Below the pieces are notes generated by a model. It searched no databases. It was given only the letters and a program-made list of their open reading frames with translations, and was not told where the DNA came from. Of a stretch of DNA of 64,000 bases, positions 53,266 through 54,640 are shown piece by piece (position 1 is the first letter of the stretch; every line of letters begins with the position of its first letter). The translations under genes and the position numbers were made by a program. The stretch comes from Gammaproteobacteria bacterium (lineage in GTDB: Bacteria; Pseudomonadota; Gammaproteobacteria; UBA1113). The DNA is taken from contig JAJFKH010000019.1 in NCBI GenBank assembly GCA_021773305.1, positions 2,872 through 66,871 on the forward strand, read 5' to 3'.

Positions 53266-53871
53266 ATGGTACGAATATTTCTCATTTTTTTGGTTTTAAC
53301 ATTACTCACCTCCTGTGCAACTCCTGTGCCTCAGCATACTCAGGATATTTGTCAGGTTTTTTTACAAAATCCAAAATGGTACAAAGCTGCCAGGCGAAGT
53401 GAAAAAAAATGGGGTGTCCCTATTCCTGTGCAAATGGCTATTATCCATCAAGAATCACATTTTACTGCCAAGATTAAACCCGAGCGTCAGCAACTACTGG
53501 GAGTGATTCCTTGGACTCGACCTTCATCTTCCAAAGGATATACCCAGGCATTGAAAATCACTTGGAAAAATTATGAAAAAAATATAGGTAAAAATCGCAG
53601 CCGCTCTGATTTTAGTGCGGCGACGGATTTTGTGGGTTGGTATGGTGATCAAGCCTATCGACGAGCTGACATTCCAAAAAATAATACGTACGCACTTTAT
53701 TTGGCGTACCATGAAGGGATCGGTGGTTATCAAAAAGAGACTTATTTGAAAAAGAAATGGCTGATCCATGTGGCGAAAAAAGTAGAGCTGCAAGCCGATA
53801 CTTACCGTTGGCAACTACAAAAATGTGAAAAGCGTTTTCAGCGTAAAAAGTTTTTTTGGGGCTTGTCGTAA
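53266..53871 (+). CDS. lipoprotein, possibly lytic-transglycosylase (SLT)-like
   Basis: Start chosen at MVRIFLIFLVLTLLTSC (lipobox LTSC) rather than the track start at 53188. IIHQESHF...LLGV...SSSKGYTQA resembles the SLT-domain catalytic-Glu region (weak). Confidence 0.5.
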   Translation: MVRIFLIFLVLTLLTSCATPVPQHTQDICQVFLQNPKWYKAARRSEKKWGVPIPVQMAIIHQESHFTAKIKPERQQLLGVIPWTRPSSSKGYTQALKITWKNYEKNIGKNRSRSDFSAATDFVGWYGDQAYRRADIPKNNTYALYLAYHEGIGGYQKETYLKKKWLIHVAKKVELQADTYRWQLQKCEKRFQRKKFFWGLS

Positions 53872-53895
53872 TTGCTCAGCTGTTTTTTCCCCCTG

Positions 53896-54138
53896 CTATT
53901 GATCTCTTGATATATGTTGCGAAACCCACATTTTGATGAGTGAAGTCCTGGTAACTCCAATTTTTGCCGCTTCGAGATCAACACATTCAAGAATATTTTT
54001 AGGAAAATCAATACTAATTCTCTGAACGGGATAGCGCGCTTTTGCAGACTTCAAGTTAAGATGCTCAGTAACATCACCGTTTTCAAACATTTCATCAAAG
54101 TCTACTGTTTTAATGTTTTTGGTTTTTGATGTGCTCAT
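53896..54138 (-). CDS. brnA: BrnA antitoxin (CopG/RHH-type)
   Basis: 80 aa. Overlaps the upstream toxin gene by 29 nt. C-terminal KIGVTRTSLIKMWVSQHI matches the BrnA ribbon-helix-helix region. Confidence 0.7.
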   Translation of the reverse strand: MSTSKTKNIKTVDFDEMFENGDVTEHLNLKSAKARYPVQRISIDFPKNILECVDLEAAKIGVTRTSLIKMWVSQHISRDQ

Positions 54139-54388
54139 AATATATTTTCTCCTCAGATTTTCTGCTTCGCCTAGCAGAGATTAAGCGGATTGTTGATCCT
54201 CGTTTAGTAAAAATGCACGAATATAGTTTCTCGTTCATTTTACCAATCAACATCGATCTAGGTTCGCCAACTGTTTTTGCCTGCAATTCAACTGAAATCC
54301 CATGCCATAGTTCACAGGCACACTCTAAACTAAGACCGTGTTTCACCTTATTGGCTTCAGACTTAATTGGATCAAACTCAAATTTCAT
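54110..54388 (-). CDS. brnT: BrnT toxin (RelE-superfamily ribonuclease)
   Basis: 92 aa. MKFEFDPIKSEANKVKHGLSLECA matches the BrnT N-terminal signature (M.FEWD..K...N..KHG..F.EA). Toxin-first, antitoxin-second order as in brnTA. Confidence 0.7.
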   Translation of the reverse strand: MKFEFDPIKSEANKVKHGLSLECACELWHGISVELQAKTVGEPRSMLIGKMNEKLYSCIFTKRGSTIRLISARRSRKSEEKIYYEHIKNQKH

Positions 54389-54535
54389 ATAATAATTGTA
54401 CTAAAGTAATGCCAAAATTACAACATTTTGCTCTTTTTATTTGCTATGGCCAGATAAAAATGAGGGGAACCTTAATAGGGCGCGGTAGAATAAGCTGCTG
54501 AAACGCCCTCTCTTGCTATAAACAAGCATTTTTCG

Positions 54536-54640
54536 TGTCTCAGCATATTCGGGATATTTGTTAGATTTTTTACAAAAGCCAACATGCGAAAAGCGTTTTC
54601 AGCGTAAAGTTTTTTCTAGGATTGTCTTAGTGCTTTTAAG
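54536..54640 (+). pseudogene. internally deleted remnant copy of the 53266..53871 lipoprotein gene (5' segment fused to 3' end)
   Basis: 54536-54579 matches 53327-53371 (CTCAGCATA.TC.GGATATTTGT.AG.TTTTTTACAAAA); 54582-54640 matches 53820-53877 (ATG.GAAAAGCGTTTTCAGCGTAAA.AGTTTTTT...TTGTC.TA). About 85% identity. Confidence 0.55.

Follow-up and report, generated by a model that had tools for sequence, protein, structure and literature searches.

Overview of the locus

How a brnT-brnA toxin-antitoxin (TA) pair came to lie between a full-length lipoprotein gene and a collapsed copy of the same gene, and which unit of DNA moved, are the questions raised by this locus, which is located ~40 kb from the dnaA-dnaN-recF-gyrB cluster of a poorly sampled Legionellales-like bacterium. 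In the window (the whole stretch of DNA that was analysed, 64 kb), the order of the features is OMP-like gene, U1 (a short stub), hemerythrin-like gene, EamA transporter gene, U2 (the partner of U1), intact lipoprotein gene, brnA, brnT, lipoprotein gene remnant and 141-aa gene (Table 1). The brnT-brnA pair is the right-hand edge of an accessory block of ~3.3 kb lodged in a decayed older copy of the lipoprotein gene, and the block carries its own copy of that gene, which is intact and of a predicted working type. The origin that we favour, with a probability of about 0.55, is that a block of ~3.26 kb from a related bacterium displaced the resident lipoprotein gene and left a nested displacement scar.

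Table 1. Features of the locus, with positions and strands in the window
Feature	Position	Strand	Description
OMP-like gene	50427..51185	-	Backbone neighbour of the putative ancestral lipoprotein locus
U1	51227..51276	+	Orphan copy of a 50-nt stretch closely preceding the lipoprotein gene; putative stub of the displaced resident locus
Putative inserted block	51277..54534	.	~3.26 kb; U1 at left, gene-body remnant at right
Hemerythrin-like gene	51428..52117	+	GTG start, AGGAG 10 nt upstream; block cargo
EamA/DMT-family transporter gene	52295..53191	+	PF00892 at 2.3e-27; block cargo
U2	53198..53247	+	Upstream region of the intact lipoprotein gene; partner of U1
Intact lipoprotein gene	53266..53871	+	Predicted SLT_4 lytic transglycosylase, 201 aa; lipobox LTSC, Cys17
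brnA	53896..54138	-	Antitoxin gene, 80 aa; NCBIfam NF047399 BrnA equivalog
brnT	54110..54388	-	Toxin gene, 92 aa; PF04365
brnTA promoter-like site	54395..54423	-	TTGTAA, 17-nt spacer, TACAAT; consensus match only, 9/12 positions
Remnant block A	54535..54586	+	Codons 21-38 of the displaced gene; TAG nonsense codon, 1-nt deletion
Remnant block B	54581..54640	+	Codons 186-201, stop and ~6 nt more; joined to block A at AACATG
141-aa gene	54636..55061	-	Predicted membrane protein; putative resident downstream neighbour of the displaced copy

The intact lipoprotein gene and its collapsed copy

The intact lipoprotein matched the SLT_4 model PF19489 over profile positions 2-184 of 184 (8.2e-73, 244 bits). 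Its N-terminal part, MVRIFLIFLVLTLLTSC, bears the lipobox; C17 and Q62-E63-S64 were invariant in 28 homologues, and all 45 invariant columns of the 28-sequence alignment, including Q62-E63-S64, were retained. With a full domain, a lipobox signal peptide and the conserved catalytic Glu-Ser, the product is a predicted enzyme of this family. A longer ORF of 227 aa, starting at 53188 in an ATGA overlap with the EamA gene, was rejected as the true gene, since the nearest homologue (P0002) shows no conservation of the N-terminal extension.

Beyond brnT, two blocks of sequence were found to be related to this gene. Block A (54535-54586) aligned with 53326-53378 at 45 of 52 positions with one 1-nt gap, and block B (54581-54637) aligned with 53820-53877 at ~46 of 55 positions with gaps, giving an identity of the remnant to the intact gene of 82-86%. 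When 54400-54700 was compared with the whole window by blastn, these blocks were the sole significant matches (E 9.5e-10 and 1.3e-7), the next-best match having an E-value of 0.019. They are colinear with the lipoprotein gene and meet at a common hexamer, which reads AAAATG at 53373 and 53820 in the intact gene and AACATG at 54581 in the remnant. Because the blocks abut at the hexamer found at 53373 and 53820, the stretch deleted from the remnant could be sized at 447 bp; the deletion is in frame and lies at a 6-nt microhomology (AAAATG). Further lesions are a CAG to TAG change at 54562-54564, the loss of one T from a T-run and the loss of two A from an A-run. Owing to the nonsense codon and the indels, the remnant would be unable to encode a protein. 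Its stop codon (54628-54630) and that of the convergent 141-aa gene are 5 nt apart, and no significant trace of signal-peptide codons 1-20 was found after U1 or upstream of the remnant. The region 53688-56142 is reproduced with 100% identity in an independent Logan contig (L001, from SRR15505519, 2455 bp), which runs from the 3' end of the intact gene through the TA pair, the remnant and the 141-aa gene as far as rsmE, and this part of the window is therefore not an artefact of one assembler.

The collapsed pseudo-copy described in the earlier note is thus present beyond brnT-brnA (54535-54640), with an internal loss close to the ~450 bp given there, and the gene calls for brnA, brnT and the lipoprotein start hold. 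That note had taken an identity of about 70% and colinearity with the lipoprotein gene as the limits of its reading; both blocks lie well within them. It had also seen a brnTA cassette between the full and the collapsed copy of one gene, and this pair proved genuine at family thresholds, as described below.

The brnT-brnA pair

BrnT matched PF04365 over profile positions 1-77 of 77 (63.8 bits, cut-off 34.5, E 1.9e-17) and retains all 15 positions that are invariant across an alignment of 21 sequences (K9, N13, K16, H17, G18, E42, K54, R63, R68, I70, S71, R73, S75, E79 and Y83), with the near-invariant columns also present. BrnA passed NF047399 near the threshold (64.2 bits, cut-off 60). The toxin gene (54388-54110) lies upstream of the antitoxin gene (54138-53896) on the same strand with a 29-nt overlap, which is the architecture of brnTA operons; the overlap in homologues was 29 nt (contig L010) and 20 nt (L012). 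Judged by family membership and gene order, brnT-brnA is a standard type II TA pair, in which the toxin gene leads and a promoter-like site of the pair's own is present; the family predicts an RNase toxin and a DNA-binding antitoxin, which would both neutralise the toxin and repress the operon.

The cassette was 73% identical at the nucleotide level to that on L010, the DNA similarity beginning 35 nt upstream of the brnT ATG, and BrnA was 79% identical at the amino acid level to the partner of the BrnT homologue on that contig. L010, which derives from the same sample as the nearest relative discussed below, also encodes ParA, ParB and an integrase, and cassettes of this type therefore travel on mobile DNA. 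Since brnTA sits between the two copies of the lipoprotein gene, its loss by recombination between them would incur post-segregational killing and so be penalised. From what is known of TA systems, a stabilising effect of the TA pair on the neighbouring segment is plausible.

A second repeat pair and the extent of the block

A second pair of repeats, absent from the earlier note, is part of the same structure as the pair formed by the remnant and the intact gene. U1 and U2 are 50 nt long and 82% identical (E about 1e-8), with a local-alignment score of 32 against 10.3 +/- 1.6 in 500 shuffles. U was considered as a dispersed repeat and rejected, there being just two copies in the 64 kb; as a structured RNA element it was likewise rejected, the folding of U1 and U2 being no better than that of shuffled sequences (z -1.3 to +1.0). 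U2 starts 7 nt past the EamA stop, 19 nt lie between its end and the ATG at 53266, and U1 lies 41 nt from the start of the OMP-like gene. When the 19 nt between U2 and the ATG are added to the spacing of U1, the distance between the OMP-like gene and a lipoprotein gene comes to 110 nt, as against 109 nt in the nearest relative found (L007). The 78 nt between U and codon 21 (53248-53325) are single-copy, with no trace at either junction. No alignment with U could be obtained from the upstream regions of L007 and L009.

Because U1 and U2 bracket the hemerythrin-like and EamA genes, the TA pair, which the earlier note had offered as a possible inserting unit, is probably not the mobile unit; the unit moved was probably the whole block with brnTA as its final cargo, and insertion of the TA pair alone is not favoured. 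The simplest reading is a single block (51277-54534) in the older gene copy, consisting of the hemerythrin-like gene, the EamA gene, U2, the intact lipoprotein gene, brnA, brnT and the brnT upstream region. Its left end is uncertain within about 51277-51410. The hemerythrin-like protein is a borderline match to PF01814 (E 2.5e-5, 25.2 bits against a 25.3-bit cut-off) and its gene has a GC3 of 0.27. The nearest EamA homologue (73%, L016) stands in a different gene context, and the next ones (~43-46%) are from marine gammaproteobacteria. The 141-aa protein had no Pfam or NCBIfam family match.

The block showed none of the features of a transposon, insertion sequence, integron cassette or integrase-borne island: the window contained no tRNA gene, the two ends of the block shared no significant direct or inverted repeat, none of the five genes of the block matched a recombinase or transposase family (Pfam, NCBIfam), and an Rfam scan of the locus gave no match. 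Candidate terminal repeats, ATAAACAAG(T)CATT (13/14 nt, near both ends), were at chance level, as 358 of 1000 shuffles scored as well. A distant-mode DNA search of the block against a plasmid collection gave no match. The GC and GC3 of the block genes are at the low end of the backbone range and still inside it, and base composition was consequently discarded as a marker of the block's origin, since it does not set the block apart from the backbone.

Comparison with relatives

In the nearest relative found (L007), a single lipoprotein gene lies directly beside the OMP-like gene, 109 nt past the OMP start, and the TA pair, the hemerythrin-like gene and the EamA gene are missing; its thaumatin-domain and OMP_b-brl genes are ~70% identical at the nucleotide level to, and syntenic with, the OMP side here. 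L007/L008 and L009 have one lipoprotein gene each and no hemerythrin-like, EamA or TA genes or remnant, and apart from the lipoprotein gene none of the block genes was found at the homologous locus of L007 or L009. The slot of the 141-aa gene is occupied by unrelated genes of 171 aa (L007) and 147 aa (L009). A functional-type copy thus adjoins a truncated remnant where the relatives have a single copy, which is the mark of gene displacement, and the view of the locus as a rearrangement scar in a region that is accessory relative to its nearest relatives is borne out.

Across 84 other SLT_4 loci (421 kb of flanks) neither a remnant nor brnTA was found, and a metagenome scan with the lipoprotein alignment yielded 80 loci of 42-58% identity with no second gene piece and no brnTA. 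A borderline self-match in L073 was rejected as an A-rich chance similarity inside another gene. Exact-protein look-ups (the lipoprotein with both starts, EamA, BrnT and the 141-aa protein) returned one window-identical 2.4-kb contig and no second strain; an exact search of metagenome contigs for a 21-mer common to both copies found none, and a contig scan with an RsmE query found distant relatives only (28-34% identity, other phyla). A donor-like order of EamA, lipoprotein and brnTA genes was found nowhere in the sequences searched.

Divergence of the copies

The repeat copies differ at 15-18% of sites (K about 0.17 and 0.21 substitutions per site for the two pairs), and K relative to L007 is far above both (about 1.5, saturated). 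For the codons kept in the remnant, identity to the intact copy is 85%, as against 67% for the L007 orthologue, and the two copies resemble each other far more than either resembles any other known homologue. Given the 15-18% divergence, the indels, the nonsense codon and the 447-bp deletion, the rearrangement, which the earlier note had called recent, is not so. The similar divergence of the two repeat pairs is consistent with one event or one donor.

Origin of the arrangement

As no other strain of the source organism showing a pre-insertion state was found, we infer the mechanism from the present arrangement. The ancestral order would have been that of the nearest relative: the OMP-like gene (-), ~110 nt, the lipoprotein gene (+), a small variable gene and rsmE. 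A segment of ~3.26 kb from a related bacterium, comprising the hemerythrin-like gene, the EamA gene, brnA-brnT and a full lipoprotein gene together with the upstream region belonging to it, may then have lodged in the 5' end of the resident lipoprotein gene, replacing ~78 nt of resident sequence (ribosome-binding site and signal-peptide codons 1-20), so that U1, the resident upstream stub, remained to its left and the body of the resident gene, from codon 21 onward, to its right. The route would be illegitimate joining of incoming DNA, probably homology-assisted, in one event or in two one-sided events anchored on the lipoprotein gene; the presence of remnants to left and right speaks against one one-sided event alone. 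The incoming copy would have taken over the lipoprotein function, after which the resident body would have decayed by a nonsense codon, small indels and the loss of 447 bp between two AAAATG hexamers. The reduction of the locus by recombination between repeats that the earlier note had offered as one of two routes applies to this internal deletion at the 6-nt microhomology, and not to the rest of the locus. Its other route, duplication of the target gene on insertion, fits poorly as a transposition target duplication, for ~550 bp are duplicated and there are no terminal repeats, recombinase or tRNA gene. Evidence against this reading includes the absence of a donor-like gene order from the sequences searched and the GC and GC3 of the block genes, which stay inside the backbone range; moreover, illegitimate joining at both ends is rare in the experimental systems of the transformation literature. 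Rates cited in PMC5361080 are in keeping with the rarity of two-ended illegitimate insertion.

A more specific version of the displacement, which we regard as very unlikely, makes the 78-nt segment (ribosome-binding site and signal peptide) the sole stretch of pairing between donor and recipient, with both diverged arms of one incoming strand (hemerythrin-EamA-U to the left, gene body-brnTA to the right) ligated at the heteroduplex borders. If true, the locus would be a natural case of illegitimate cargo capture on both sides of a central anchor, brought about by transformation between diverged relatives, and accessory genes would have used a conserved lipoprotein gene as their landing pad in an intracellular Legionellales-like bacterium.

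Other courses of events were weighed against displacement by a related block. Two separate Campbell-type single-crossover integrations, with the TA pair as an insertion unit of its own and the intact gene largely resident, would be an unlikely origin. In such a scheme a circle bearing brnTA and the 3' part of the lipoprotein gene, from codon 21 to 6 nt beyond its stop, would generate the full copy, the TA pair and a 5'-truncated copy, and another circle with the hemerythrin-like gene, the EamA gene and U would recombine at U. A crossover with a fragment-bearing circle yields exactly what is seen, a full gene, cargo and a 5'-truncated copy running into resident downstream DNA; the left copy of the repeat ends ~6 nt beyond the stop and the right one at codon 21, the same logic gives U1-cargo-U2, and TA cassettes of this type are known on plasmid-like contigs. 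However, two independent unusual events at one locus would be needed, each with a circle that had previously captured a piece of that locus, and both repeat pairs are about equally diverged. Crossover copies would be expected to start nearly identical, so that a difference of 15-18% would call for long decay in situ, even of U2, for which some constraint is expected; moreover, no plasmid or element sequence is left, nor did the plasmid collection hold a DNA match.

Duplication in situ of parts of the U-lipoprotein region (by unequal exchange or template switching), with cargo captured near the junctions and subsequent neutral decay, would dispense with a related donor, and the closeness of the two copies to each other relative to all other known homologues, together with a backbone-typical GC3 of the intact gene, agrees with it. 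Most of the substitutions between the copies are derived in the remnant, and they are spread near-evenly over codon positions (~4:4:6), as neutral decay would have it; true orthologues here give only 9:8:17, so that this test is powerless, and the codon-position split was rejected as a discriminator, since it fits foreign origin and in-situ decay equally. At least two duplications and two cargo insertions exactly at the junctions, or precise secondary deletions, would be required, and the single-copy state of the 78 nt between U and codon 21 is unlike a simple tandem duplication; we consider this origin distinctly unlikely. That the arrangement is an artefact, through AT-rich chance similarity or a chimera of two co-assembled related strains, has next to negligible probability. 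The sequence is probably from a metagenome-type assembly and the U1-side junction has no independent support, as L001 starts at 53688; against this, the E-values of 1e-7 to 1e-9 have nothing comparable elsewhere in the window, the matches are colinear with the gene, the independent Logan assembly agrees exactly over its length, and strain mixing would not account for the nonsense codon, the indels and the internal deletion of the remnant.

Significance and annotation

The locus is a clear, unremarkable recombination scar with little that is new in kind. Its interest is as a dateable case in which accessory genes, including a TA pair, entered a conserved chromosomal neighbourhood, and under the favoured displacement they would have done so on a homologous incoming copy that displaced a resident housekeeping gene, with no dedicated mobile element; the biological stakes are small. 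In the annotation, 54535-54640 is best labelled as a pseudogene fragment and 51227-51276 as the orphaned upstream stub of that pseudogene, and the lipoprotein start should be set at 53266 and not at 53188. Genomes of closer relatives could tell one-step from two-step capture, and whether the TA pair protects the block against loss.

Comparison with known systems

The BrnT/BrnA type II TA system was first described in Brucella abortus. The pair described here shares with it passage of both family models (PF04365, NF047399), the toxin-first order and the small size of both proteins (92 and 80 aa). It differs in that BrnT is 41-69% identical to other BrnT in the protein collection and <50% to plasmid-borne BrnT, that the pair has no sequence-level match to a solved structure, and that the antitoxin falls just under the Pfam CopG_antitoxin cut-off (PF12441, 25.7 against 28 bits).

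TA pairs are found at the edges of genomic islands, integron arrays and integrative elements, where they are thought to stabilise neighbouring DNA. Here too the pair forms the margin of an accessory block, and it is flanked by direct repeats that would delete it on recombining; in contrast to those systems the locus lacks an integrase, an attC or att site, a tRNA gene and terminal repeats, and the block measures only ~3.3 kb.

A further likeness is to the displacement of Rhs C-termini and to the T6SS effector-immunity arrays of Vibrio cholerae (Kirchberger et al. 2017; PMC5361080), in which incoming modules displace resident genes and leave shifted 3' remnants, a process ascribed to homology-facilitated illegitimate recombination. 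In the present locus, by comparison, the gene displaced is a predicted lytic transglycosylase of housekeeping type instead of a polymorphic toxin, the cargo consists of a TA pair with a transporter and a hemerythrin-like gene instead of an immunity gene, and there is one instance and not an array; remnants are also present on both sides, so that a one-sided anchor would need a second event. Common to them and the present locus are an intact, cargo-bearing copy upstream of a truncated older remnant, the lack of a recombinase, and a slot of variable content between conserved genes.

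Two repeat pairs around the brnT-brnA locus

Comparison of 54400-54700 with the rest of the window by blastn returned two significant matches only (E 9.5e-10 and 1.3e-7; next best match, E 0.019), both to the SLT_4 lipoprotein gene: 54535-54586 aligned to 53326-53378 (45/52 identities and one gap) and 54581-54637 aligned to 53820-53877 (approximately 46/55 identities, with gaps). The two pieces were colinear with the gene, in agreement with an earlier note that had placed a collapsed copy of it, with about 450 bp missing internally, beyond the toxin-antitoxin (TA) pair. They abut at the hexamer AAAATG, which is found in the intact gene at both deletion end-points (53373 and 53820), so that 447 bp were lost, in frame, through recombination at microhomology. 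The remnant also carries a CAG to TAG nonsense change and is shortened by 1 nt in a T-run and by 2 nt in an A-run; as a gene it is dead. Across 53688-56142 the window was matched with full identity by an independent Logan contig (L001), so the order of intact gene, TA pair, remnant and 141-aa gene does not depend on any one assembler.

A wider repeat search extended the observation by a second pair, overlooked in the earlier note: a 50-nt sequence (U2) that follows the EamA stop codon (53191) and precedes the lipoprotein ATG recurs as U1, 41 nt away from the OMP-like gene start, with 82% identity (E about 1e-8; alignment score 32, compared with 10.3 +/- 1.6 for shuffled sequences). The window held no third copy, and the repeats gave no significant RNA structure and no Rfam match. 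The 78 nt from U to codon 21 (ribosome-binding site and signal-peptide codons) are single-copy, with nothing similar after U1 or before the remnant. From the positions of U1, U2 and the remnant, the plus-strand order is OMP-like gene, U1, hemerythrin-like gene, EamA transporter gene, U2, intact lipoprotein gene, brnA, brnT, brnT upstream region, gene-body remnant (codon 21 onward), 141-aa gene, rsmE, ahcY and metK.

Features of the locus and of the rest of the window (coordinates are those of the window unless a contig is named)
Feature	Coordinates	Strand	Description
OMP-like gene	50427-51185	-	adjoins U1
U1	51227-51276		upstream repeat
U2	53198-53247		upstream repeat
SLT_4 lipoprotein gene	53266-53871	+	201 aa; full-length lytic-transglycosylase domain (PF19489, 8.2e-73)
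brnA	53896-54138	-	NCBIfam BrnA equivalog, 64.2 bits (cut-off 60 bits)
brnT	54110-54388	-	PF04365, 63.8 bits (cut-off 34.5 bits)
14-nt direct repeat	51386-51399; 54518-54531		near both block ends
Slot gene, window	54636-55061	-	141 aa; membrane protein, no family match
Slot gene, L007	5942-6457 (L007)		171 aa; no family match
Slot gene, L009	5109-5552 (L009)		147 aa; no family match
Ankyrin-repeat genes	27145-31674; 31674-36278	+	1509 and 1534 aa
Thaumatin-domain gene	48505-50415; 2508-4418 (L007)	- (window)	636 aa; PF00314, 4e-23
Low-GC ORFs	17561-19711; 46993-47964	+	716 and 323 aa

The intact lipoprotein gene and the brnTA pair

The lipoprotein signal peptide is MVRIFLIFLVLTLLTSC, with the lipobox cysteine at its end. 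The public 227-aa protein of this gene (P0001) starts at an ATG overlapping the EamA stop codon (ATGA). This annotated start is probably wrong, because the nearest homologue shows no conservation of the 26 extra residues (53188-53265 in the window) and a normal lipoprotein signal peptide comes after them; the 227-aa ORF from 53188 was rejected as an over-extension.

BrnT retained every invariant column in an alignment with 20 homologues, and BrnA fell slightly below the Pfam CopG_antitoxin cut-off. The brnT gene comes first and overlaps brnA by 29 nt, with a promoter-like site (TTGTAA, 17-nt spacer, TACAAT) directly upstream. The closest BrnT proteins showed only 66-69% identity, and plasmid-borne relatives less than 50%. 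At the DNA level, the closest relative (73% identity over a stretch that starts 35 nt upstream of brnT and runs almost to the end of brnA) was found on a 10.6-kb contig encoding ParA, ParB and an integrase (L010, positions 43-4281; Logan SRR29547195), where a cassette with exactly the same overlap lies between parA-parB and the tyrosine-recombinase gene. This contig, from the same sample as L007, is probably a plasmid or integrative element of the host organism's nearest-relative group; another homologue is flanked by chromosomal housekeeping genes. The brnTA pair of the window is an ordinary, apparently intact member of a known family moving between replicons. From family membership, it is predicted to comprise an RNase toxin and a neutralising antitoxin that represses the operon. 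A putative role in stabilising the locus is reasonable, since the pair lies between repeats whose recombination would delete it.

Relatives and the probable ancestral locus

By homologue searches, the host organism belongs with Legionellales-like bacteria; among named lipoprotein matches the best were from Legionella species (about 55% identity), and two 1500-aa ankyrin-repeat genes are also present. No second strain was found in the collections searched, and the two nearest relatives found were metagenomic contigs. In L007/L008 (lipoprotein 73% identical), the order is thaumatin-domain gene, OMP-like gene, 109 nt, lipoprotein gene, unrelated 171-aa gene, rsmE and ahcY, and in L009 (66%) the lipoprotein gene follows atpC-glmU-glmS and precedes an unrelated 147-aa gene. 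EamA, brnTA and a hemerythrin-like gene are absent from both, as is any second piece of the lipoprotein gene. Because adding the U2-to-ATG spacing (19 nt) to U1 would put a start codon 110 nt from the OMP-like gene, matching L007, U1 is best explained as the upstream stub left by a lipoprotein gene that formerly adjoined the OMP-like gene, the remnant being the body of that gene. A further 80 metagenome SLT_4 loci and 4 other loci (421 kb of flanks) held no comparable remnant and no brnTA, which makes the scar peculiar to this genome rather than a general feature of the SLT_4 gene family; one borderline match was rejected as an A-rich chance match.

Immediately 3' of the lipoprotein gene is a slot, followed by rsmE in the window and in L007, that holds a different, unrelated small gene in each of the three and turns over independently of the TA insertion. 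Elsewhere, a run of genes (6336-12656, 14093-23151 and 36713-46969) is typical of an origin-proximal chromosomal region: gyrB, yidC, mnmG and the ATP synthase subunit I gene were confirmed by Pfam, ORFs of 360, 368 and 460 aa beside gyrB were assumed from position to be recF, dnaN and dnaA, and synteny with L009 points to the remaining ATP synthase operon and glmU-glmS. Given this run, the scar would lie about 40 kb from the assumed dnaA. The adjacent giant genes packed with ankyrin repeats (Ank_2, E 1e-92 and 1e-98; low GC, 0.36-0.37) resemble eukaryote-like effector genes arranged as a tandem pair; they are flanked by the gidA/MFS-transporter region and the ATP synthase operon. The thaumatin-family domain is known chiefly from eukaryotes; the protein carrying it is syntenic in the nearest relative (71% amino acid identity). 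Two low-GC ORFs (GC 0.31 and 0.33, GC3 0.25 and 0.28), set among housekeeping genes and with no Pfam match, may be further acquired or effector-type genes.

Age and origin of the scar

Of the aligned sites, 15% differ between the gene-body copies (K = 0.17) and 18% between the upstream copies (K = 0.21). Comparison of the window with L007 showed saturation at four-fold degenerate sites (K about 1.5); in the codons shared with the remnant, the intact copy is 85% identical to it and only 67% to the L007 orthologue. These values indicate that the two copies became separate well after this lineage had split from that of L007. Both repeat pairs are of similar age, and at strain level the event is not a recent one. 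Where outgroups were informative, most differences were derived in the remnant, as expected for a decaying fragment. Their split across codon positions (about 4:4:6) does not discriminate between selected divergence in two genomes and neutral decay in place, since true orthologues show only 9:8:17 over the same codons.

Most economically, a block of approximately 3.26 kb (about 51277-54534), bringing a complete lipoprotein gene together with the region upstream of it, would have entered the resident gene at its 5' end in place of 78 nt of resident sequence, with the resident stub left to one side and the body to the other; this body would then have decayed, its function being covered by the incoming copy. 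The earlier note's proposal of a rearrangement scar in an accessory slot is borne out; its interpretation holds only in part, as the U1/U2 pair makes the TA pair probably the last cargo of a larger block rather than the inserted unit, 'target duplication' is a wrong description, and the divergence points to an old event where a recent one had been proposed.

No recombinase or transposase family match was obtained for the block genes, no significant terminal repeats or match in the plasmid collection for the block, and no tRNA gene in the window. Since the block thus bears no mark of a dedicated mobile element, its arrival is attributed to DNA that came in from a related bacterium and recombined at the locus. 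A near-identical 14-nt direct repeat, ATAAACAAG(T)CATT, is suggestively placed (left copy 29 nt before the hemerythrin-like gene start, right copy 4 nt before the remnant), and is not significant against shuffled sequences (358/1000 scored as well).

The survival of remnants to the left and right is at odds with a single one-sided event; the block may have been joined illegitimately at both ends in one event, or through two mirror-image one-sided events with the lipoprotein gene as anchor. Two Campbell-type integrations, of circles each carrying a piece of the locus, constitute the main rival and are judged unlikely. Purely in-situ duplication is somewhat less probable still, needing more steps and not predicting the single-copy 78-nt segment. 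Base composition does not decide between origins of the block, and no donor arrangement was seen, the nearest EamA homologue having a different gene context. For the preferred reading, lodging of an incoming block, there is a published analogue in which incoming modules displace resident genes through homology-facilitated illegitimate recombination (PMC5361080). The locus adds a new BrnTA family member, set within a displacement scar of an already known type, and the novelty is low.
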